A stretch of DNA of 14,570 nucleotides. It comes from an uncultured Gammaproteobacteria bacterium. GTDB taxonomy: Bacteria > Pseudomonadota > Gammaproteobacteria > UBA9214. Shown here one piece after another: positions 227-13,777 of the stretch. Below the pieces are notes generated by a model that did not search any database, was not told the DNA's origin, and saw only the letters and a program-made list of their open reading frames with translations. The position numbers were made by a program, and so were the translations under genes. The DNA is taken from NCBI GenBank assembly GCA_963773065.1, contig CAVYZN010000013.1, positions 1 to 14,570 of the forward strand, read 5' to 3'. Numbering within the stretch: the first letter of the stretch is position 1; every line of letters begins with the position of its first letter.

Positions 227-1235
227 TCAAGCGTGATGCCGCTTTTCAGGGATCTTATAGGCACCCCAGCGTACTTCGCCGGGGATTAATACATCCCTGC
301 CGGTAGATCCGTCGGCGGATGCCTTCACCCACGCAATCAGTTGCTCAACGCGCGCATGGTATTCCGCAATCGGCATCAGACGGGAGATGTCGATGGCAAG
401 CATGAAATGCCCGTTGTCGCCGCTTTCAGAAAAATTCTTGTACATCGACTTGACACCGTGGCTGAAACCCGCCCCGGTGATTACACCACTGAGTATTTCC
501 ACCATTAGTGCCAGTCCGAAACCTTTGGGCCCTCCGAAAGGCAGGAGCGGGCCTTCCCGCACTCCCTCGGAACGGTAAGGGGATTGCCTTGCCCGTCGAT
601 AGCAACATTTTCCGACAGCCTGCCTGACTTCCCTGCTCCACGATCTTCGTGACCGAGGAACCGGCCATGGCGGAGATTGTCATGTCGATCATTACGTCCG
701 TCCATCGGGTCGGGGCGCCGCAAAGGCAAGCGGGTTGGTTCCGAGCACGGGCCTGATGCCACCAAACGCCGCCACCTTCGGAAACGAATTACTCATCGTT
801 ATTCCAATCATGTTGCGTTCGGCGGCGATCTGGACGTAATAGGCGGCGGCGCCGAAGAAATTACTGTTACGTACCGCCACCGCACCCATGCCCTCAGTCA
901 TCGCGATCCCCACGGCCCTGTTCATGGCCAAGCGACCAATGTGATGACCAAGCCCCGCATCGCCGTCCAGCAGATCCAGTGCCGCTGCCCATCGGTAGAA
1001 TCTGGGGGTACAGGGGCATTTGATGAGCCCTAATGAGATCCTTCTGGCCAGGAGCGGTAACCGCCAGACGCCTTGCGTGCTCCGCCCCACCTGGTCGCAC
1101 CAGACGAGCACATCGGCCAGGCTGTCTGCCTGCAGATTTGTCCGCTCCGCAGGCGAGCGCAATCTCGCGCGTAAAGCGTCGCAGTGACCCGGGTGCAATG
1201 GCAAGTGCGTCTAGCGGCCGATGATTCTCTTCCAT
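227..1235 (-). CDS. Ldh_2-family (type 2 malate/L-lactate/sulfolactate/ureidoglycolate dehydrogenase-like) oxidoreductase, frameshifted; 3' end uncertain
   Basis: Stitched from ORFs 894-1235, 692-1204, 426-692, 505-765 and 227-562. Family motifs: DGDAGLGH, AVAVRNSNFFGAAAYY, GTNPLAFAAP, LLPFGGPKGFGLALMVEILSG, GHFMLAID, VLIPGE. Confidence 0.88.
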
Positions 1236-1242
1236 AGCCTTT

Positions 1243-2414
1243 ACGCTTCCTCTCTACCCGGGACAAGAAATTCCTGACCGCCGGCCACGGATCCGACAGG
1301 CTGAAGTATGGAAATGTCTGCCTGTGAGCAAGGCTGCGCAGCCATTGAAACCAGCCAAGCTCTCCGCGGGCGTGCAACTGCCGGAAAGCATGGATATCAT
1401 CCCTTATAAACAATAATTTCACGTTTTGCGCGTAGGAACTCACATCAGGCTGGGGCAGACCGGTCACATGGTTATAGATAATCATTGCGCTATCCATGCC
1501 CGCGCGGACCAGCAGTTCGTGTGCTTGCGTAAAGCGAACATTGCTTTCTATCACCTTCAGCTCGCCATCGCGGGGATCACGTTTGAACTCGATGTTCCCA
1601 AGCCCGCGGAAACGCATCCCTTGAAAAAAATCTTTTCCCCAACTCGGCCGTATCGGGCAGCCACTGGGTCATGTGGTATGAAGCGGGGCCTTCGTTAACC
1701 GGATACCTGCGCAGCACTCTTTTGGTGAAATGAAAGAGTGCCTGTCCGTCATGCGTGATATAGGTGTAATAACGGCTTAACTGGCTATCCGGGCCGGGAA
1801 TGAGTTCGCAGATCATTATGCGCAGTCGTTTCTCCAGCAGGGTTGCCGCCTGCTGTCGCAGTTCCTTGAAATCCGCAGGGCTAAGGTACTTTCTGTTCGG
1901 ATAGTATTGTTTAAAACAGGCGCGAATGAACCGGCTTGATAATGACTGGGTACATTACCACGTTTTCCAGGTCATCGAGATCACCCAAATGGTCAAGCTG
2001 CCAGAACCGGGGGTCTGGCAGCCCGGGGAACGCGCCCATTCAAATGTGCGTTGCTTGTCGAGCATGTCCAGGACGAGTTCGGGCACATAATCATCAAGCA
2101 GGTATAGCCTTTCGAGTTGCTGGCGATGCTTTGCCATGACTTGAAAGCGTCGTCGCCGCAAGCGAAAAGCACGTGTCCTTCAAGCGGTGAGCGATCGGAG
2201 CCGAGCAGTATTCGCCCCGGTATTCAAGTGGTGAATTATTCTTCGGCAGAGGAAATTAACCCTGGCAAAAGCGCGACAGTGGGGCCAGGCAACTCTTATC
2301 ACACGACACACGCACAGGGATGCCTTTCCTGCCGAGACTGCGGACAATCGACAAGCTGTTGGCAGCGCCCCCAAGCAGCAATACGGGCGGAGAGGAAAGG
2401 AAATGACTGCTCAC
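1243..2414 (-). CDS. ATP-grasp carboxylate-amine ligase (D-aspartate-ligase-like group), frameshifted; both ends approximate
   Basis: N-terminus PVLLLGGAANSLSIVRSLGRKGIPV (end of ORF 2256-2654), then MLDKQRTFEWA (1955-2161), ICELIPGPDSQL...KRVLRRYPVNEG (1577-1816) and GLGNIEFKRDPRDGELKVIESNVR...FSLSDPWPA (1030-1617). The EFK-x-D-x-RDG...IE-x-N-x-R segment is the ATP-grasp signature. Confidence 0.85.
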
Positions 2415-3559
2415 CGCTGCAACTCTTGCACAGCCGGCCAGCAGAGGGGCGGTCCGCTTGTCGTGCAAATATGTATTGCAGTACCAATTTACCGAATCGG
2501 GTGCCCCGGCCCGGTCAGCGACCAGATCGTGATGATTGAGTCCGGGTGTGGTATTGATTTCGTTGATGACCCCCCCGCTGTCCTGCAATGGCGTCGCCAG
2601 CGTCGGGGCGATGATGTCGACACCTGCCAACTCAAGGTTAAGCGCGGATACCAAGCGTTCACCCAGCTCTATGATCGAGGGATGAACCCTGATGTTCCCG
2701 GTGGTTCTCCCGGGAGGAGTTCTGATTGACGACGGTTTTCACCACAACGGATTCGCCGGCAGCCGGGATATAATTCAGGTGCATCCCGGCATTTCCAAGA
2801 TGATACTCTGCACTCGAGATCCGTCGTGATATGGCAGAGTGAGGTCACCGTATCGCCTTCAGCCCTGCGACGGTTCTCCGCAGCAATCAGCGTTCTAAGC
2901 GTACACCTGCCATCGCCTGTCACACGGGGAGGGTCCCTCCGCACCGCGTCGACAAATTGCCCGCCGAGATAGAGCAGCCGGTACGAATTGCCCGGTATCG
3001 GCGGTTCGACAAGCAGGTTTTTATCGTAGCCTGAAGCCCATACGGATGCGCGCCTGAGCTGACGGCGGCTGTGAACGTTGGCGGTGATCCCGTTTCCCCG
3101 CCTGTTCCCTGCATCGGCTTGATGACAACCATGGTATTGAGATGTTCCATGAACTCGGCCGCCCTGGGGATGCTGGCGAGGTCGTACACGAGATAAGGCG
3201 GCCCTTGATAGCCGGCTTCCGCCAGAAGCTTGTAGGTCAGGTGTTTGTTCCCGACAATCCGCAGACTCAAATGGGTATCCAGCATGACATGGTATCCACA
3301 GACATAGGTACTGTGTTTGCCATCGCTGATTTCCAGGATATGGTCGCCCAGTTCGCGCACCCCGTGCACCGACGGAGCAGGCGGCTGACTCCCAGTAGGA
3401 GCGATAGTACTTTTCGTACACGCGGGCGAACTTCTGCAGCAGTTGCCGATTGTTAGGGTAATATCTATGCCTGAACTTGAAGTATAGCCTCTGCATGCGG
3501 AGCAAGCGGGTAACGATGTTCTGATACATATTGATATCACTCTGTTTTAGTCCCGTCAT
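2411..3559 (-). CDS. Cyanophycin synthetase/GshF-like ATP-grasp ligase (ATP-grasp domain only, no Mur-ligase domain), frameshifted; 3' end approximate
   Basis: Stitched from ORFs 2669-3559, 2920-3540 and 2256-2654: NKHLTYKLLAEAG, VVIKPMQGTGGxGIT, YRLLYLGGQFVDAVRRDPPRVTGDGRCTLRTLIAAEN, AGVDIIAP...GGVINEINTTPGL. These resemble the CphA N-terminal ATP-grasp motifs (V-x-GDG-xx-T-I-xx-LI...EVNxxPGL). Confidence 0.82.
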
Positions 3560-3710
3560 CCTGGGAGTCTGTCCGAGTAACCATGTTGCTGCTGCGGCAC
3601 CGGGGATCTGCCGCCTCCTTATGCACAGAATATTTGGACAGGCTCCCCATGGAATGGGTGGGTGCCTCTTAATCGAGACGTCCCCCTTTTAAACGGATTG
3701 CACTAACGCG

Positions 3711-4443
3711 TCAGGGACGAAACTTCACTTGAAGGATACAACCAGCCTCTTGCAATATATCGTCTACCCATTCGTTGGAGAATACACCGCGTTTGACGTC
3801 TGCGACATACCGCTCCAGCGAGTCACGCTGTACGAAGGCACGCTTAGAATATCCTCGGCGAAGTCCAGACGCACGACGGTCAGGCCGTTGGTATCGCCGA
3901 TAATGATGTCCCCGGGGTTCACGACGATGCCGCCACAGCAAATCGGGTAGTTGATCTCGCCGGGTCCGCGGTGCAAGGGACCGATGGTGATACCCCTCGC
4001 GCATAGATCGGCAGCCCGGTCTCCTTTATTCCCGGAAGGTCACGTATCAGTCCGTCTATGACAAACGCCTGAATGCCGCGATGCCTGGCCTTGTTGGCGA
4101 CGAGATCGCCCATTACACCGTTCATCGGGGTAGCCCCCGCATCTACCACTACAATGTCCCCCGGGTGCGCGACATCGAGAGCCTTGTGCACCATCAGGTT
4201 GTCACCCGGAAAGACCTTGACGGTACAAGCGGGTCCGCAGATGGCGTCGTCGTTTACCAGGTTGTGTATCGCTGCCGACATCGTATAGAGCCTGTTCATG
4301 AGGTCTGAGATGTCAGGCGATCCAAAGCATCTAAACTGCTCTATAATGCCTGGACTCGGTCTCGCTATGACTTCACGGATGCGGAAGCCGGGACCAGGAT
4401 ACATCTCGGCGGACTTGGGCTTTTTGACGGTGCTGATAACCAT
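3711..4443 (-). CDS. RraA-family protein / 4-hydroxy-4-methyl-2-oxoglutarate aldolase-like, frameshifted
   Basis: Motifs ISDLM, GPACTV...GDNLMVHKAL...PGDIVVVD, GDLVA, VIDGLIRD, GPGEINYPICCGGIVVNPGDIIIGDTNG. ATG at 4443 with GGAGGA Shine-Dalgarno at 4451-4456. Spans ORFs 3919-4500, 3764-3976 and 3711-4004. Confidence 0.9.
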
Positions 4444-4495
4444 ATTCGAGTCCTCCATCAAACTGGGATATCTATGGCGCCCAGGGCGACCAGTT

Positions 4496-4510
4496 TGCAA
4501 AAACGATCCA
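4496..4510 (-). promoter_or_regulatory. Possible sigma-54 (-24/-12) promoter of the RraA/ATP-grasp operon
   Basis: Minus strand reads TGGATCGTTTTTGCA, one base short of TGGCA-N6-TTGCA spacing, about 53 nt upstream of the ATG at 4443. Confidence 0.3.
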
Positions 4511-4638
4511 GTAGCCTAAGCTTGTCCTCCCAGAGACATCGACGCGCTCCAGTGCACCCGAGACTGTTTCACTTCCCTCAACATTTCTAAGGAGTTGGTT
4601 ATACTCGCAGACACTATAATCAGGATGAGATTTAGACT

Positions 4639-4845
4639 TTGGTCCATGATAATACTTTGTTCTAACAAATACTCAAACTGGTCCCGGAATTCTGGTCCGT
4701 GGTACGGGCGCACCATCAGGACCAGAAACTGCGCAAAATGACCCGCTCGTCACAGTTCATCAGGCTGTGTCTGGCGCAGTTCGCGGGCCGCGTGGACCTG
4801 CGCGATGTTGTCAGCAACCTCAAGGCTCAGGCCGGCAAGCTCTAC
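4639..4845 (+). pseudogene. IS4-family transposase N-terminal remnant (DUF4372-like), with in-frame stop and truncated
   Basis: Reads LVHDNTLF*QILKLVPEFWSVVRAHHQDQKLRKMTRSSQFIRLCLAQFAGRVDLRDVVSNLKAQAGKLY, which resembles the NTLFSQIL...QF...AQL.GR.SLRD...L.AQ..KLYHLG pattern. TAA at 4663-4665; similarity ends after KLY. Confidence 0.8.
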
Positions 4846-4887
4846 CCCGAATTCCTCCCCGAGGGGATAGAAAAAGGCTGCATACAC

Positions 4888-4902
4888 TGGCATAACGGTT
4901 GT
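4888..4902 (+). promoter_or_regulatory. Possible sigma-54 promoter upstream of the oxygenase gene
   Basis: TGGCATAACGGTTGT has the correct GG-N10-G spacing but T in place of the conserved -12 C. Confidence 0.3.
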
Positions 4903-5047
4903 GCGAACAATCGGTTAAGGCAAAGAGTAGCGGCCGTCGATCACGAACGACCCTCTGATCACAATCGTGCGAAATGCCGGGGGGGTGGGAACCGCGCTTG
5001 AGTAACACCACTTCTTCAGCCATTGCAAGTACGATCAGCAGCCAGAC

Positions 5048-6037
5048 ATGAAAATATTCGATTTTTCGCCGGAGCATTATTCCAACGAGTATCAAGCGAA
5101 GGGTTTTGTCAACATTCCGAATGGCATGAACCCGTAATTTCTGGCCTATGCCAGAGATCAGGCCCACGAACTGATCGAAGCGCAAAGATCGTTGAAGGAA
5201 TGGGAGTTCAAGGGAAAGAAGCAGCAGTTCTTGTTTTCCTTTCCACGGGATTCAGACTTTCCGGACGGTGTGAAACAGGCTGTTGCCAGGGTTGCCGGGC
5301 TTTCGGAAGAACGTATGACGCTCTGTGAGCGCCACATCAAGGCATACGCCCGTACCGCCGCTGCGAATCCTACGCCCACAAGGATCGCGTTGCCTCGGAG
5401 GTCGCCGTGGGAATACCGCTGGCGGTTCCAAATGGCTCGTATATGGTCTTGTACCCCAATCATCATGTGGCGGCCAACCCTTACAACACCACGGCGTTGT
5501 CCGCAGTAGCCTTGACGAAAATGAACGGCCCGAGAACATATCGAAGGATATCGAACCCGTAAAGCTCGATATCCAGCCGGGTGACCTCGTCATGTTTCGA
5601 GGCTCCGCGATCTGGCACCAGCGCATTAACCCGGCCAACACCATGCTGCGGTATCTGAAGTTCAACGCCATGCGGCTCCATCCGATCGGGGAGGATCCCG
5701 GTACTCCGCTACAGCGCGAGAAGAAAGTCTCGGGCTCGTGCGGACCACCCCGGATGAGCAGCTTTTGCGATCGAGAATTGAAGTGTCGCCCCGTCTGGAA
5801 CGGATCAGCCGCCATTACACCCGTCTGTACTGGAAGGAAATGATCCAAGCGTATATCGGAGGCGAGAAGGAATTCACCCTGTCCGAGATCGACCTGCAGA
5901 TCTTCAGAAACATCGAGGGTGGCCAGACAGTCTCCGGCACGCTGGAGCGTGTTGGTGTCACTGGAGCGGATCAGTTGAACTATCTGCCACGTGTCCGGAG
6001 GCTGATCGCTCTGGGTGGCATAGACATTCTGTCGTAA
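5048..6037 (+). CDS. Putative 2OG-Fe(II) oxygenase (double-stranded beta-helix) with C-terminal helical extension; frameshifted, with an in-frame TAA at 5135
   Basis: Reconstructed as MKIFDFSPEHYSNEYQAKGFVNIPNGMNP*FLAYA...HIKAY...PTPHKDRVASEVAVGIPL...QPGDLVMFRGSAIWHQR...YLKFN...LIALGGIDILS. HxD (HKD) plus the distal H in PGD..F.G...WH.R fits the iron facial triad. Confidence 0.7.
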
Positions 6038-6086: not shown

Positions 6087-6220
6087 GAATAGAACTCTTA
6101 AAGCCCTTTTTCCTCGACAAGAAACGTACGGCTGGGCCTGTGGGCACCCATTGGCGAACCGACCGGTACCCGGGAAATGACGTGATCGACCAGGTGAGAG
6201 GCCGTCTCTGCCATGCGAGT
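6087..6220 (-). mobile_element. Internally deleted IS91-family remnant: ~20-codon transposase fragment joined to an oriIS-like end
   Basis: 6161-6220 encodes TRMAETASHLVDHVISRVPV, compared with RRMAETAAHLVDHV.P.VPVRQWVLS next to the IS91 zinc-binding domain. 6087-6145 is a close copy of 14494-14553 and ends ...AAGAGTTCTATTC on the minus strand. Confidence 0.7.
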
Positions 6221-6238
6221 TGTAATCGGCGGCATCGG

Positions 6239-6301
6239 AAGCAAACGGGCTGATGCCAGGTATCTCCTCGCTTTCTTGAAAAGCGCCGCTTTATCGGTCA
6301 A
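6239..6301 (-). pseudogene. HEPN-domain toxin, N-terminal 21 codons only
   Basis: (M)TDKAALFKKARRYLASARLL is a typical HEPN first helix. It directly follows an MNT gene and is cut by the IS91 remnant. Confidence 0.6.
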
Positions 6302-6628
6302 AGCCGCTATCCCTTCACGGCGGACGTTGCGCCAGAACGGTCCTTCGACGGTCTTGAGAGTGTTTTCATCGACCGGCAAGACCGAAAGCAGGACACCGTA
6401 GCGGAGGTTGAAATCCGCGATGATATCGGCGATACGATCGATTTCGCGCGACGGGCGGATTACGTCGCGCAGAATCAGCAAAAGATCCACGTCCGAGTCG
6501 GGTCGCGCCTCGCCTCGCGCTTCGGAGCCGTAAATCAAAAGGCCGCGTTAGCGGTCGCCGTAGCGCATGCGCAAAGCGGTCGAAAACTCTTGCAGGATAG
6601 AATCAAGATTGGCCCGGATTGTTGTCAT
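6302..6628 (-). pseudogene. Minimal nucleotidyltransferase (MNT) antitoxin with in-frame stop
   Basis: From ATG 6628: MTTIRANLDSILQEFSTALRMRYGDR*RGLLIYGSEARGEARPDSDVDLLLIL...PFWRNVRREGIAA. Carries the GS-x-ARG...SDVD motif. TAA at 6548-6550 sits where Leu (YGDRL) is expected. Confidence 0.85.
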
Positions 6629-7072: not shown

Positions 7073-7203
7073 AATCCCTTCTCCCTCCGGTACTTGACGT
7101 TACCTTGTACGGGTAGAAGGTCAGGATGAGGGAATATAAAATCGAGCAATTATCCTATTAAATCACCTCACCTGCCCTTATCCTAGCCCTCTAACCGTAC
7201 CGG
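7073..7203. repeat. Degenerate palindromic REP/MITE-like element
   Basis: Arms 7107-7132 and 7175-7200 are inverted repeats (21 of 26 match) around an AT-rich 42 nt spacer, preceded by TCCCTTCTCCCTCCGG. Confidence 0.65.
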
Positions 7204-7381
7204 GCACCGCAGTGTTCTGTCCCGAGCCTGATCCTCCGTTTCCTCCGTGATGAGAGTCCCTCGTCACGGCATAAATTACAGTGCCCACCACGGCGCCGAT
7301 TGCGATGCCGGTACCCACAGCCGTGCCTTTCGAAATCGGGGCCGCTTTCTCGAGAATAATGTGACAGATTTATTTTCCGTC

Positions 7382-7711
7382 CTATTCACAACCCAACGCG
7401 GCGCAGATCGTGACTTGAGCTTGCTGGAAAGCACTTGGCGTCAGCCTGCCAAAGTGGGATGCCGCAATACGCCTATTCAGCGTGTAAAGCTTCGTGGTTC
7501 GAAGATAGCTTGGCTTGGGAAGGATACCTTCTTGAAAATCGCCCTGATAGAGCGGGAGAGCATCTTCGTGACCTGGCTGGGAGGTAATCGCGGCGGCGAG
7601 AAAGTCGCCGAAGGAATCGGCGTGTCTCAGCACCAAAACGGGACGACGCTTGCTGGTGGTAAGGTCCGTGTAGGGAAATGGAATGAGCAGGATGTCACCT
7701 GGATGCGGCAT
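7382..7711 (-). CDS. Type II toxin, PemK/MazF-family endoribonuclease
   Basis: Intact 109 aa ORF with GDILLIPFPYTDLTTSKRRPVLVL...AAITSQ...GILPKPSYLRTTKLYTL...FGRL. Confidence 0.92.
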   Translation of the reverse strand: MPHPGDILLIPFPYTDLTTSKRRPVLVLRHADSFGDFLAAAITSQPGHEDALPLYQGDFQEGILPKPSYLRTTKLYTLNRRIAASHFGRLTPSAFQQAQVTICAALGCE

Positions 7712-7899
7712 CGTTCCAGGTCTCGTCGTCGGGATTATCCCAAGTCTGGTTCATGCTGGCCATCTGCGCGGCGGAGAGATTGTCATACGGGGCCTGCTCG
7801 CGGCGGCTGCGCAGGAATTCGATAAAATCCAGAACCTCGCGCGCCAACGCATCCGGCAGGGGGTTTGACGGCTTCGTAGATTTTGTCAGCGAGTGCCAT
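7695..7899 (-). CDS. DUF2281-like antitoxin (one frameshift in the G run at 7859-7863)
   Basis: ATG 7899 with GGAGA SD. Corrected sequence MALADKIYEAVKPLPDALAREVLDFIEFLRSRR...WDNPDDETWND carries the LP...EVLDFIEFL motif and an acidic W-D-N tail. Overlaps the toxin start. Confidence 0.8.
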
Positions 7900-7991
7900 G
7901 TAATTTCTCCGTGATGTGCATTCAAGATTAGCAGGTAAGCATAGCGAAATAAACGCTGATATCCAGTCGGCACAGCAATAGACCGTAATTA

Positions 7992-8040: not shown

Positions 8041-8068
8041 AAACCGGCCTCCCCTGACATAGCCGTGT

Positions 8069-8208
8069 CTATTTGACGACCTTGTCGTCCTTCAGCACCC
8101 CTTCCAGCCGGTCTCGCACAGCGTGGTGATCACCTTGATACGCGCATAGGCTTTGTCGTTGCCTTCTACCATGATCCATGGCGCCGCATTGGTGCTGATG
8201 TGTTCGAC
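8069..8208 (-). pseudogene. pap: Orphan 3' end of a PPK2-family polyphosphate:AMP phosphotransferase gene
   Basis: Reads VEHISTNAAPWIMVEGNDKAYARIKVITTLC(fs)RLEGVLKDDKVVK*, matching the PPK2 C-terminal pattern TST..APW..VE.NDK..AR.KVL..LC..LE. Confidence 0.75.
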
Positions 8209-8270
8209 GCGGGGAATCAAGTTGCAGGGAAGAGTTAGTGCAGAATTTTATCGAACAAACACTACAGAGC

Positions 8271-8290
8271 ACTCAAGATTGAGTATACTC
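8271..8290 (+). promoter_or_regulatory. Overlapping palindromes with a TATACT -10 box just upstream of dndC
   Basis: ACTCAA-GA-TTGAGT (8271-8284) and GAGTATACTC (8281-8290). TATACT at 8284-8289 is separated by 7 nt from ATG 8297, and no SD is present. Confidence 0.35.
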
Positions 8291-8296
8291 CCCGAA

Positions 8297-9594
8297 ATGA
8301 CAGCGATCCCATATCAGGACATCAAGAGATTCCCTGCGTCAGCTCTACCTGGAAGACACCGGCCATGGCTCGTCGGCTTCAGCGGTGGCAAGGACAGCAC
8401 GATGCTCGCCTCGCTCATCGTTGAGGCCGTCGCTGTATCCCCGATGACCAGCGCAAAAAGCCGGTCGCCGTCCTCTGCACCGACACCCGTGTTGAAATCC
8501 CGGCCATCGTTGAAATGGTCGAGGGCACCCTGGCGCGCATGCAGCGCTTCTCCCAGCAGAACAGACCTCAACATCGAAGTCAATCTCCTCAAACCGCCGC
8601 CCGAGCAATCTTTCTGGGTCAACATCATCGGTCGCGGCTACCCGCCGCCCAACCGCACCTTCCGCTGGTGCACGCAGCGCCTGAAGATCGATCCCGTCAC
8701 TATCTTCGTCCAACAGCGCCTTGGCCACTGGGCGAGGCGATCCTGCACCTGGGCGCGCGCCGGGCGGAAAGTTCGACCCGCGCACAAACCATGGCCGGCC
8801 GCGAAAAGCGCAACGGCCTGAGCCGTCACCCGATCTGCCCCGCGTCTGGGTATCCAATCCGATTGAATTCCTCACTACCGAAGAAGTCTGGGCCTACCTG
8901 CTCCAGAAACCCAATCCGTGGGGCGGCGACAACCGCCCGCTCTACAAGCTTTACGCCAGCGCCTCCAACGGCGAATGCCCCATCCAGATTGACACCAGCA
9001 CCCCCAGTTGCGGCAACTCCCGCTTCGGCTGCTGGACCTGCACCGTCGTTGAGCGCGACAAGGCCAGCGAAGGCCTGCTCGCCAGCCGGGGATGAACGCA
9101 TGGAGCAGCTGATCGAATTCCGCGAAACACTCCTCTAATTCCGTGACCCCGCTAACGGCTGGCGCGACAGCCGCCGCATGAACGGCAACGACGGCCCCGG
9201 CCCGCTCCCATCGAAGCCCGGCGTGAACTCCTAAGACGCCTGCTCGCCTTGCAGGAAGAAATCGGCCTGACGAAGTCATCAGCCCGGAAGAATTCCTTCT
9301 GATTCAACAGACGTGGAAAGCAGCACGCGACCCCGACGATGGCCGGGCGTAGCCCGCATCGTCAACAAACAACGAGGTGTCATCATGAGTGCCGACCTGA
9401 AAGAACTGAACCGCCTGCGTGAACTGGAGGAGGAAGTCGCCCGCGAAAAGGCCATCGACGCGGATACACTCCGCCGCATGCTCGCCAAGGTGGAGGAATA
9501 CAGCGAAAGCCACCGCGCCCACGGCCTTCCCGACGACTTGCTCAATATCCTCAAGGATGACCTTGGAAGCCCAGGAGCGGGGGCGAGGAGCTGA
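8297..9594 (+). CDS. dndC: DNA phosphorothioation sulfurtransferase DndC (PAPS-reductase fold); several frameshifts and an in-frame TAA at 9136
   Basis: Motifs RPWLVGFSGGKDST, TDTRVEIP, SFWVNIIGRGYPPPNRTFRWCTQRLKIDP, LGARRAESSTR, EEVWAYLLQKPNPWGGDN, ECPIQIDTSTPSCGNSRFGCWTCTVVERDK and GPGP, all diagnostic of DndC. Confidence 0.93.
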
Positions 9595-9595
9595 A

Positions 9596-9818
9596 ATGCC
9601 AGAAGTTTATATCGATTCGCTTGACACTAGAAAATTTCGGTCCGTTCTACGGCGAGCACATATTTAATTTCGGCAGCCTCGCTGGCCGTTGCGGCATTCT
9701 GGTTGGCGGAAAGAACGGGGCGGGGAAAACCCATGTGCTGCGGGCACTTTATCTTGCCGTTGTAGGCGAAAACAGCGCGCGGTGCCTTGAATCGCGGCGA
9801 ACCGATTGTTGTGGTTGA
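9596..9818 (+). pseudogene. dndD: DndD-like SMC/ABC ATPase, only the N-terminal ~60 aa
   Basis: GAGGAG SD, then MPEVYIDSL(fs)TLENFGPFYGEHIFNF...ILVGGKNGAGKTHVLRALYLAVVGE. Has the L-x-NFG-x-F-x-G start and Walker A, and sits directly after dndC. Similarity ends near 9770. Confidence 0.8.
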
Positions 9819-9822
9819 CTGG

Positions 9823-10756
9823 ATGCCAACTGGTGCTGTCATCTCAGCATTTTCCGAATGCACGCGATGGCTCAACGTGCTAAGTGATCTGAATTACGAC
9901 ACGGCAAGTGGAATTGCGCCCCACAAACCACTGCTTCTTCTTGTTATCTGTGATTTGGCCGAGTCGGGAAAGATGGAATGAGCGATTCTCTATCGAGATG
10001 GTGATCTTGACACTTCGGTTCAGTTCTTACTGGAGGATCGTTGCCGACCGCAGACGTTCCAAGCCTGGACGACATCAGACTCCCGTTCTTTTATTTGCGG
10101 ACTGAAGGAGTATGGAAACCGCTTGAAGCTGACGGGAGACGGGCAGAAGACAGAAACCGCGCTGTGTTGGGCCAATTGGATGTCTCATACCTTGCGTGCC
10201 TGAAGAGCGAGGAATTCCGTACATTAGCGCGCCGAACGCTAATTGCGAAATACTTTGAAGCGCACGAACGGGCCGAACTCTATAGCCTTGTCGGACTTGA
10301 AGTGCCGCTAGAAGACATCGTTGCAGCAGATGCGACTCGTTTTCTACCGTCCGAAACGACCGGGACAAAACGCGATGCCAAGTTTTCTTTCGTGTCCTCC
10401 CAGCTTACGACTATACCTGCGCGTTGACGCGCTATCGGATGATTGCGACCAACGGAACAACGTCGCTTGACGCGGCGCACATCCACCAATTCAAGAAAGG
10501 CGGCAGCAACCACCCAACAAATGGAATCGCACTGTCAAAGACTGCACACTGGCTGTTTGCCCGCGGCTTCTGGTCGATCACAAACGATTTGCGCGTAATC
10601 GTTGCCGAACACCGTTTCGAGGAAGTAGGTGAGGACGCTTACTTGCTCAAAAAAATGGCCGGACGCGAGATGTTGCGTCCCACGAATATTCATTTTTTGC
10701 CTGATCCACAAATCCCTCCCTGGCATCGTAAGCATCACAAGTTCGAAGACCGATAA
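9823..10756 (+). CDS. SBD-HNH endonuclease (phosphorothioated-DNA-binding restriction endonuclease-like), frameshifted
   Basis: N-terminal APHKPLLLLVICDL...F..YW...IRLPFFYLRTEGVW is a sulfur-binding-domain pattern. C-terminal RDAKF...AYDYTCALT...DAAHI...GGSNHPTNGIALSKTAHWLF.RG...WHRKH is an HNH domain. Confidence 0.8.
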
Positions 10757-10919
10757 TGATTCACGTTAAGGAATTGTTGCGCGTAGGTTTCAAAAATTTT
10801 AAACGTGAAAGAAAAAAGGGGCGGAGGGGTGGCAGCCGTAAAAAAGATAAGGTTGAATAATTAATTCAGCGAAAACAGGCATCGCCATCAAATTCTCCAC
10901 CCATTTGGCATAAAGATTG

Positions 10920-11193
<274 letters not shown>

Positions 11194-11252
11194 CTTCTGC
11201 TCAGGGCGTTCGGATGATTCGCCTGGAGACTAAGTGATTGAGACGGCTGCGC

Positions 11253-11375: not shown

Positions 11376-12131
11376 TTACTCAGGGAGGTCGGTTCTTGTC
11401 AACTTCGCCTGGCGTTTTCGCATCGACTCCCCCTTCAGGTTGATGCGGTAGGCATTGTGTACGAGGCGATCGAGGATGGCGTCAGCCAACGTTGGATCGC
11501 CGATGACCTCATGCCAGTGATCGACGGGCAATTGGCTGGTGACAAGGGTGGAGCGGGAGCCATGACGGTCGTCGAGCAGTTCCAGCAGATCCCGGCGTTG
11601 TTCGGCGCTGAACTTGGCCAGCCCCCAGTCATCCAGGATGATGAGGTCGGTCTTGGCGAAGCTGCTCATGAGCGTGGGGAAGCGCCCGTCGCCATGAGCC
11701 AGGCCCAGTTCCTCGAACAACCTGGGCAGGCGCAGATACTGGGCGGTGTAGCCCTCCCGGCAGGCCTTGTGGGCGAGCGCGCAGGCGATCCAGGTCTTGC
11801 CCACGCCGGTGGGGCCGTTGATGATGAGGTTGAGCCCCTCGCGTACCCATTGGCAGGTGCTCAGTTGCCGCAGCAACGCCTTGTCCAAGCCACGGGGTGA
11901 GCGGTAGTCGATATCCTCGAGGCAGGCGCTGTGTTTGAGCCTGGCCTTGCGCAGGCGGGTCTGCAGGCGCCGGTCCTCCCGCGAGCTCATCTCCCGGTCG
12001 ATGAGTAAGCCGAGGCGTTCCTCGAAGGACAGTGCCTCGATGTCAGGCAGGCGCTGCTGTTCGGTGAGCGCCTTGTGCATGCCGTCGAGGCGCAGGGTCT
12101 GAAGCTTTTCCAGCGTGGGGTGGTGCAACAT
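11376..12131 (-). CDS. istB: IS21 helper ATPase IstB
   Basis: Intact 251 aa ORF with Walker A GPTGVGKT, Walker B LIILDDWG, and TSQLP...DPTLADAILDRLVHNAYRINLKGESMRK. Confidence 0.97.
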   Translation of the reverse strand: MLHHPTLEKLQTLRLDGMHKALTEQQRLPDIEALSFEERLGLLIDREMSSREDRRLQTRLRKARLKHSACLEDIDYRSPRGLDKALLRQLSTCQWVREGLNLIINGPTGVGKTWIACALAHKACREGYTAQYLRLPRLFEELGLAHGDGRFPTLMSSFAKTDLIILDDWGLAKFSAEQRRDLLELLDDRHGSRSTLVTSQLPVDHWHEVIGDPTLADAILDRLVHNAYRINLKGESMRKRQAKLTRTDLPE

Positions 12132-12152
12132 AGTGGGATCTCCTGTGTCAGG

Positions 12153-13695
12153 TCAGTGGTAGTAGTCCGAGCCACGGATGTTGTCGTGCTCGAGGCAGAG
12201 GGTGAGTTCCTGCTGTGCGGGCAGTGGCTGGCATTCGAGCCCCTGACGCAGGATGGACTCGATGCTCTTGTAGCTGCAGGCGCCCAGCAGCAGTGCCCGG
12301 CGACAGGCCGCCTCCAGGCGCTGCTCACCAAAGCCCTTGCCCAGGCGCATGATGCCCAGACAGGAGCGAAAGCCCTGCTGGGGATGGGCGCGGCGCTCGA
12401 GGATGTCCTGGATCACCCCGGCGGTGGCCGGCCCGGTATGTTCGGCCCAGCGGATGAGCCGCTGGGGTGTCCACTGGGCGTACTCGCGATGGGCCTTGGG
12501 CATGTGCTCGGGCACGGTGGTGTGGCGACCCGTGAGCGCAGAGCGGATGTGGCTGGCCACCCGTTGCCCCTGGTGGAAGCACTCGATCGTGTTGGCGCTG
12601 ATACGCACCTCCAGCTCGACGCTTCACCAGCTGATAGGGCACGGAGTAGTAGTGACCCTCGACCTCGAGGTGATAGTCGATGTGTACGCGGGCCTTCTTC
12701 CACTCGGCGAACACATAGGGTTCGCCCGGCAGCGGGCGCAGTGCCGGTCGGTCGAGCTGCTCGAACAGCGACTGACGGGAACCGGGCAGCTTCTTGAAGG
12801 GGCGGCGGTTGAGCCGCTCCAGCAGCTCGCGGATCGCCTGGTTGAGTTCGGCCAGTGAGAAGAAGGTGCGGTGGCGCAGCGCCGCCAGGATCCAGCGCTC
12901 GACCACCTGCACGCCGACCTCGGCCTTGGCCTTGTCGCGGGGGCGGCGCACGCGGGCCGGCAGCACCGCCACGCCGTAGTGGCTGGCCAGGTCCTGGTAG
13001 GTGGGATTGAGGTCCGGCTCGTAGCGATGGGCCTTGGTGACGCCACTGCGCAGGTTATCGGGGACGACCACTTCACTGACCCCGCCAAAGAACTGGAAGG
13101 CCCGCACATGGGAGCCGATCCAGTCCGGCAACTGCTGGCTCCAGGTGGCCTCGGCGTAGGTGTAGTTGGAGGCCCCCAGCACGGCGACGAAGATCTGTGC
13201 CGCCTTCACCTCACCGCTGGCCCGGTCCACGATCTCGACCGTTTGCCCGGCATAGTCCACGAACAGCTTCTCCCCGGCGCGGTGTGGCTGGCGCATGACC
13301 ACATCGAGCTTCTCTTCCCAGGCGCGGTACTGGCCGCAGAACCAGCTGTACTGAAAGCCCTCGGGATGGGCGGCCTTGTACTCCTGCCACAGCAGGAAGA
13401 GGGTCACGCCCTTGCGCCGCAGCTCCTCTCTGATGTGGGTCCAATCCGGAACGACGCGTTGCGATGGCGGTAGCGATGGCGGCGGTGGAAAAAGCTGACG
13501 ATCCAGGGTGGCATCGTCCAGCTCATCGGCGGCGGGCCAGCAAAGCCCAGCGTCCTCAAACCGCCGTAGATACTCCTTCACGGTGGGCCGGCCAATCCCG
13601 TTGCTGCGGGCGATCTGCCGGTTACTCAACCCGCTATCGAACTTCAATCTCAAGACATCTTTAATCTTACGCATGGATAACCTCTGTGCTGGCAT
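12153..13695 (-). CDS. istA: IS21 DDE transposase IstA, one frameshift near 12615
   Basis: [50 protein letters not shown]; continues in ORF 12153-12608 to [11 protein letters not shown]. Confidence 0.96.
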
Positions 13696-13777
13696 CTGCC
13701 CCGTCCTCAACCGTTGAAAACGGGGCAGCATACCGTTGTGGTTATCCCGCGCCAGGATCGCTAACTTCCCCTGTCCA

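Follow-up and report, generated by a model that had tools for sequence, protein, structure and literature searches.

The window analysed here, a 14,570-nt stretch of DNA from an uncultured gammaproteobacterium, is the whole of contig C13 in a 33-contig assembly (91% complete, contamination 6.3%). At positions 8297 to 10756 it carries the phosphorothioate (PT) writer gene dndC, the first codons of dndD and, closely behind them, a gene for a two-domain nuclease that joins a sulfur-binding domain (SBD) to an HNH domain. Comparison with 130 related loci indicates that dndD and the nuclease gene are probably writer and anti-writer alleles of one slot, exchanged by homologous recombination, which would make the locus a PT counterpart of DpnI/DpnII. 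The arrangement is real and recurrent, and is explained in outline as a variant of known writer-versus-cutter conflicts; the loose end is a dndC that stays clean.

The slot behind dndC

The locus, encoded on the forward strand, begins with dndC (8297–9594, ~432 codons), which has the SGGKDS loop and an Sp-DndD-like tail; its frame is interrupted by 10 indels and one stop in the assembly, and the frame breaks are probable read errors. Its pieces match PADLOC DndC (E 7e-30 and 5e-38), the middle piece is 95–100% identical to homologs of 430–440 aa, and a 93-aa open reading frame at 9313–9594 is the DndC tail, not a separate gene. The dndD stub (9597–9791) comprises codons 1–65, including the Walker A motif at 9705, and matches PADLOC DndD positions 6–61. 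Resemblance to intact dndD ends at ~9791 (codon 65–66), leaving 65 of 687 codons. A leader of the nuclease cassette follows (9792–9822); in relatives, the stop codon of the stub abuts the nuclease ATG. The nuclease gene (9823–10756; 309 codons in relatives, 3 indels in the assembly) starts 32 nt past the dndD break and contains the motifs APHKP at 9916, LPFFYL at 10080 and AAHI at 10472. Searches of the 91% complete assembly turned up no other dndD, no DndE::HerA or DGQHR gene and no second nuclease. A tblastn search with the DndE::HerA protein of locus L014 gave no match there, nor on the contig itself, and the Pfam DndE profile found none in the assembly, being likewise silent in every control. 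Judged by gene content, the PT writer at this locus is incomplete, with full-length DndD and DndE::HerA both missing. A sequence-only reading of the window had described dndC, a dndD broken ~60 codons in, a co-oriented SBD-HNH gene with APHKP and LPFFYL close behind, and an absent dndE; each of these points is borne out.

Relatives were assembled as two sets. GTDB genomes scanned with DndC provided the best 80 of 97 loci, and a metagenome scan with the nuclease provided 50, of which 33, with at least 400 nt upstream, were scored, 6 being weak partial matches and 11 having <250 nt upstream. Intact relatives carry dndC, dndD (687 aa) and dndE fused to a HerA-type ATPase (493 aa), followed by DGQHR or HATPase and Methyltransf_35 genes, an order that identifies the parent operon as dndC-dndD-dndE::HerA of the DndEi type.

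Of the 80 DndC-picked loci, 37 retain dndD and lack the nuclease; dndD is full in 32 of them and continues up to the contig edge in 5. In 33 more, the nuclease follows dndC, and dndD is truncated or missing. Other genes fill the slot in 8, and in 2 the contig stops at dndC. Full dndD and nuclease occur together in none of the 130 loci. The nuclease match begins <150 nt past the end of the DndC match in 27 of the 33, and dndC lies upstream in 25 of the 33 scored nuclease-picked loci, a few of them duplicates; published SBD-HNH sets lie near dnd genes in <3.6% of cases (PMC7461809). The nuclease state, which accounts for about four in ten sampled loci of this widespread clade, spans Acidobacteriota, Verrucomicrobiota, Nitrospirota, Binatota, Bacteroidota and others. 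The same dndC-nuclease adjacency is found in Bacteroidota at 35–38% DndC and 23–26% nuclease identity. Whole nuclease genes also persist where dndC is gone or reduced to scrap, at 8 loci (L097, L098, L100, L105, L107, L108, L115 and L125).

The slot accommodates other genes as well. An HsdR_N protein, a BbrUII-like restriction enzyme or a DNA methyltransferase fills it, with dndD lost, in L040, L051, L074, L076, L019, L061 and L067. A search of the 8 loci with other genes by SBD profile for hidden SBD genes found none in 7 and scrap in L075. By its gene contents, the position behind dndC appears to be a general exchange hot spot. Five genomes hold two loci of the clade (L019+L067, L029+L031, L038+L049, L052+L071 and L076+L077), none combining intact dndD with the nuclease. 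In L126, L127 and L129, the nuclease subfamily stands behind a distant dndC (39–42% identity) and a 128-codon dndD start, an arrangement suggesting that it enters other dnd clades too. L059, from an archaeal (Bathyarchaeia) record, is an intact operon of the clade that groups within bacterial copies.

Probable recombination at the slot

The dndC tree has 76 rows, after removal of two duplicates, the two loci at contig edges and dndC genes that were short or distant; 68 of its tips are labelled, 56 of them from GTDB. Intact and nuclease states interleave on it: the 68 tips require 21 changes, where shuffled labels average 21.8, and the GTDB tips alone require 15, where shuffling averages 19.2. 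In only 7 of 25 GTDB nuclease loci do dndC and the nuclease point to the same nearest partner; in the window, dndC is nearest to L050 and L116, and the nuclease to L094, L095 and L101.

Junction positions differ among loci. On the left, the break coincides with the end of dndC or falls at dndD codon 66, 128, 407 or 591; on the right, it falls within dndD, at dndE::HerA or in later island genes. In L116, L026, L052, L063 and L065, the nuclease gene falls within the extent of dndD, 5′ or 3′ remnants of which flank it. Sequence identity steps sharply at the cassette edges: L026 and L052 are 98–99% identical over the nuclease and ~100 nt per side, against 81–93% in dndC and 70–85% in the dndD remainder, and L101 and L117 differ by 0–2 positions per 50 nt within the nuclease and by 4–16 to its left. 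The shared left edge is <100 nt in L101/L117, L027/L131 and L109/L111. Two nuclease loci each agree with a single intact operon to the left and right of the nuclease (L037/L041, right flank 91%; L022/L024, 90%), and L094 tracks intact L015 at 96–97% as far as the junction.

Other features of the break points were recorded alongside. Behind the nuclease, L026, L052, L063 and L065 retain dndD C-terminal remainders of 300–380 codons and a whole dndE::HerA, with 0–2 of ~100 invariant residues changed. Left break points appear, by eye, to share microhomology. In L172 (positions 6–300; genome G099), dndD codon ~591 is fused in frame to the final 36 codons of dndC, followed by the nuclease; from this order, the cassette seems to have brought its dndC tail into the end of dndD.

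In the exchange model, SBD-HNH would take the place of dndD, and often of the genes that follow, in the dndC-dndD-dndE::HerA operon. With the dndD allele, the locus would write PT; with the nuclease allele, PT writing would likely be lost, because DndD is essential in the systems studied, where dndC, D and E are required for PT modification (PMC8569181) and PT synthesis requires a P-loop NTPase (PMC12914056). The dnd promoter would drive the nuclease, whose start would be coupled to the stop codon of either dndC or the stub. It would restrict incoming PT-marked phage, plasmid or island DNA and, as ScoMcrA does, bar re-entry of an active dnd operon. The left recombination arm could be the conserved dndC end or dndD start, and the right arm the dndD remainder, dndE::HerA or later island genes; dndC would mostly be a shared flank, renewed from working operons. 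Because the exchange would run via conserved flanks, gain of the cutter would remove the writer in one step.

The nuclease and competing explanations

A structure model was built for the nuclease of an intact relative, L094 (predicted local distance difference test score 80.9), which is 87–89% identical to the window in the in-frame pieces. Its first domain superimposes on SBDHga (8h0l) with Z 15.5, a root-mean-square deviation of 2.5 and 134 aligned residues, on SprMcrA (7ccd) with Z 14.0 and on ScoMcrA with 13.5, in agreement with the sequence-only assignment of the N-terminal domain as an SBD. The HNH domain reaches Z 11.8 to TagI; the SRA domain is absent, leaving two domains in all. Profile matches are E 2e-15 for the SBD and E 1e-7 for HNH_2. 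The sulfur pocket of SBDHga is formed by H25, K26, L75, P76 and H79 (PMC10602919), and its equivalents are kept among 67 relatives as H in 61, K in 64, L in 58 (F in 8), P in 67 and H in 63. H218, N232 and H241 of the HNH domain are present in the window and in 66–67 of the 67. Homologs are 309 aa long and up to 92% identical to the last piece of the window nuclease, and the ratio of nonsynonymous to synonymous rates (dN/dS) is 0.06–0.23 in 10 close pairs. Four relatives score 111, 106, 91 and 80 bits on NF045808 (EcoWI-like PT-DNA_restrict), under its cut-off of 180, as a related subfamily. The nuclease is, on the model, built like a PT-dependent type IV enzyme and would be expected to cleave PT DNA; with its SBDHga-like pocket, the subfamily may supply broad-range PT cutters.

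Several observations weigh against exchangeable writer and cutter alleles. In the nuclease itself, the window keeps 4 of 5 pocket residues, with TAT (Tyr) at the SBDHga H79 position, inside a T run of an error-rich contig, and the L094 protein is the one reaching 111 bits on NF045808. Exclusion across whole genomes was counted for 31 of the 33 nuclease loci and 36 of the 37 intact loci, same-genome duplicates being dropped. A full DndD match occurs in 0 of 31 nuclease genomes, with fragments in 7, one of them (G071) at a contig edge. A full nuclease occurs in 1 of 36 intact-dndD genomes, behind an in-frame join of dndD codon 591 to a dndC tail, probably part of the same broken locus. Set against the background in 401 genomes from a single class (nuclease match in 10, DndD match in 15, both in 2), where the expected overlap is <1, these counts do not exceed chance and are accordingly not taken as support. 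In one of the two genomes with both, G146, a canonical DndD and a distant SBD-HNH lie on separate contigs; the other, G044, matches through its own remainder. L026 and L052 also share 144 nt 5′ of dndC at 99%, which makes the direction of exchange ambiguous: a renewed dndC, and not a moved nuclease, may explain the pattern there. One clade (L032, L044, L079, L033 and L037) has concordant dndC and nuclease trees, and the correlation of dndC and nuclease distances is weak (Mantel rho 0.22). Among 10 close pairs, the nuclease appears to be the younger of the two genes in 9, a biased count because the pairs were selected on low synonymous divergence of the nuclease.

The constraint on dndC adds to these points. 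The terminal-branch ratio of nonsynonymous to synonymous changes (N/S) is 0.309 in nuclease loci (39 tips) and 0.320 in intact loci (28 tips; p 0.63), with no relaxation, so that the exchange reading needs very young captures or constant renewal. At invariant DndC residues, nuclease loci show 45 changes in 5081 sites and intact loci 57 in 3987, long-read-type records kept apart (those labelled MFD, which we take to be long-read assemblies); frameshift counts from pairwise alignment were noisy and left unused. In L118, the stub has decayed (14 of 33 invariant residues, some via frame slip) beside a near-clean dndC (3 of 154). Without relaxed selection after the loss of dndD, a working pair is conceivable: DndC without DndD/E would mark invading or nicked DNA (by thiolation or adenylation), or an ATPase of the invader would complete the reaction, and the nuclease would then cut the DNA or kill the cell. 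The adjacency in Bacteroidota, the stop-start coupling and the retention of dndC in L118 fit such a two-gene system, which we nevertheless regard as unlikely. The two genes do not move as a unit, and whole nuclease genes survive without dndC at 8 loci. The useless stubs are as fresh as dndC (0–2 of 33 invariant residues changed in 9 of 10), as expected of young captures, and dndC is also clean behind unrelated replacement genes (L040 and L051). PT synthesis in the studied systems needs the P-loop NTPase (PMC12914056), and the DndC-picked loci were chosen through intact DndC peptides, a caveat for the cleanness of dndC.

A further mechanism, possible though doubtful, is homing that depends on the mark: the sulfur marks of an intact operon would make the operon itself cleavable, the nuclease would cut it once the two alleles came together, and repair on the homologous dndC-nuclease copy would install the nuclease and delete dndD, the insertion serving as its own immunity. 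Free-standing homing endonuclease genes are nuclease genes found between divergent flanks with short co-transferred edges, and the ~100 nt per side in L026/L052 resemble their short co-conversion tracts. They differ in their target, which here would be the mark written by the empty allele and not, on present evidence, a specific sequence within it. If this holds, the nuclease would act as a gene drive directed at an epigenetic mark instead of a sequence, and would contribute to the patchy distribution of dnd systems.

The sequence-only reading had left two histories for the locus. Its switch from PT writing to PT restriction is retained, with the one-off deletion of the writers replaced by what appears to be recurrent exchange at one slot of a DndEi operon (33 of 80 loci). 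The other history, in which SBD-HNH is the native restriction partner of a larger intact dnd variant and dndD and dndE were lost later, is very improbable and, for this clade, largely refuted; its reduced form, DndC paired with the nuclease in the absence of DndD, is the unlikely two-gene system described above. Three-domain wHTH+SAD+HNH enzymes do occur in Dnd loci of 698 taxa (PMC10853773). In our sample, full dndD and the nuclease never stand together, intact operons continue with dndE::HerA, and none of the 37 intact loci has the nuclease; the nuclease instead lies within the span of dndD in the five loci listed above, and its model is without an SRA domain.

The state of the window copy bears on two remaining alternatives. 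Compared with close relatives, the window has 16 indels of its own in 2460 nt (10 in dndC, 3 in the stub and 3 in the nuclease), 13 of them single-base. Exchange could hold for the family with this copy dead, dndC and nuclease being real pseudogenes in a decaying island; the indels, the stop in dndC, the pocket Tyr and the decayed nuclease copies in L069 and L075 would agree with this. We consider it rather improbable. Contig C13 has the lowest long-open-frame share of all 33 contigs (0.17 vs ~0.6), and unrelated genes on it are broken too; the breaks in the cluster at 227–6037 support contig-wide read error. The window DndC has 1 of 138 invariant residues changed and a terminal N/S of 12/31, a pattern not expected of a gene carrying 10 genuine frameshifts. 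Read error, apparently of the unpolished long-read type, is the probable source of the 16 indels. A chimeric dndD/nuclease join, suspected in an error-rich contig whose sequence turns to homopolymer junk after ~10790, 30 nt past the gene, and whose junction no public run spans at high identity, has almost no probability left. A dndD stub ending at codon 65–68 directly 5′ of the nuclease recurs in 10 of the 50 metagenome contigs, which appear independent, so the junction is not misassembled, as the sequence-only reading had feared it might be; L117 is identical to the window over 41 nt spanning the break. Four public runs share 5–6% of the words; aligned at 80% likeness, they yield nothing but fragments of relatives, and no listed fragment bridges the junction, a result with no bearing either way.

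Surroundings of the locus and known conflict systems

A likely dndC promoter (8271–8296, forward strand) has TATACT 7 nt 5′ of the ATG, overlapped by a 6-bp inverted repeat; its function is predicted from the sequence. A −10-like hexamer 5–9 nt before the dndC start occurs in 18 of 78 loci under a strict pattern, and its nearness to the start suggests a leaderless transcript. Head to head with dndC lies a 3′ fragment of a pap-like polyphosphate kinase 2 gene (8059–8209, reverse strand), so named by reading its translation. Contig C11 carries a whole copy of the gene, whose 3′ end (counterpart at 91853–92001) shares 87% identity with the fragment; four same-genus genomes match the fragment at 80–90%, and window positions 7201–7353 recur on C11 at 94%. 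A DNA search of 40 related genomes found the fragment alone, with no dnd or nuclease DNA. The fragment may be either an island attachment-site duplicate or a sign that C13 comes from a related strain.

Toxin-antitoxin genes adjoin the dnd locus on the reverse strand, namely a DUF2281 and PemK/MazF-type pair (7382–7973) and a minimal nucleotidyltransferase gene (~6098–6538; PADLOC PDC-S09). Farther upstream, at 227–6037, is a frameshifted biosynthetic cluster with a reductase, ATP-grasp ligases and an RraA-like aldolase, by reading of translations. On the other side, low-complexity and homopolymer junk (10790–11195) leaves the right flank of the cassette unreadable, and past it lies an IS21-family istA-istB pair (11376–13731, reverse strand), of which blastn found no second copy in the assembly.

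If dndD and the nuclease gene are alternative alleles within the clade and not partners, the paradox of PT writers beside a PT cutter is resolved, and dndC-only remnants are explained. This speaks against calling every SBD-HNH near dnd genes a cognate restriction enzyme. The three-domain wHTH+SAD+HNH enzymes have been proposed as restriction partners of dnd modules (PMC10853773); the two-domain subfamily of the window behaves otherwise. Rare SBD-HNH/dnd neighbours have been suggested to reflect non-functional dnd clusters (PMC7461809), and PT-dependent nucleases have been proposed as a reason for sporadic dnd systems (PMC8569181), an idea that the natural pairs L037/L041, L022/L024 and L094/L015 make testable. 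We found no account in the open literature of SBD-HNH replacing dndD in its operon; such loci may be listed in the supplements of PMC10853773 and of PMC7461809, whose Table S4 gathers about 65 SBD-HNH/dnd neighbourhoods.

The components of both alleles have well-studied relatives. SprMcrA, EcoWI (PMC7461809) and SBDHga (8h0l; PMC10602919) share with the window nuclease the SBD fold, the HNH domain, the lack of an SRA domain and a pocket of H-K, L-P and H; the window subfamily differs in falling below the NF045808 cut-off, in standing mostly behind dndC and in being known here from sequence and model. The gene order of the intact relatives is that of DndEi-type clusters (PMC6435447), with their DndE-HerA/FtsK fusion (PMC10853773); in the window, a 65-codon stub represents dndD, and dndE::HerA is missing.

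Two known conflicts come closest to the proposed exchange. ScoMcrA, on SLP1, and the dnd island of S. lividans exclude each other, and arrival of the nuclease selects for dnd loss: ScoMcrA and dndA-E are incompatible, with 300-fold fewer exconjugants, and all 10 tested were without the dnd island (PMC3009677). There, the two reside on separate islands and the whole dnd island is excised, whereas here the nuclease gene itself sits in the place of dndD. DpnI/DpnII of Streptococcus pneumoniae (PMC2993543, PMC12707154) likewise place the writer of a mark and the enzyme that cuts at this mark in one locus, with common flanks, never coexisting and exchanged. The locus described here differs from them in several respects: the mark is backbone sulfur, not methyl; the swap occurs inside the writer operon, where dndC stays, with ends that vary, instead of a whole writer being swapped at fixed ends; break points and nuclease subfamilies vary; and many phyla are involved, compared with one species.

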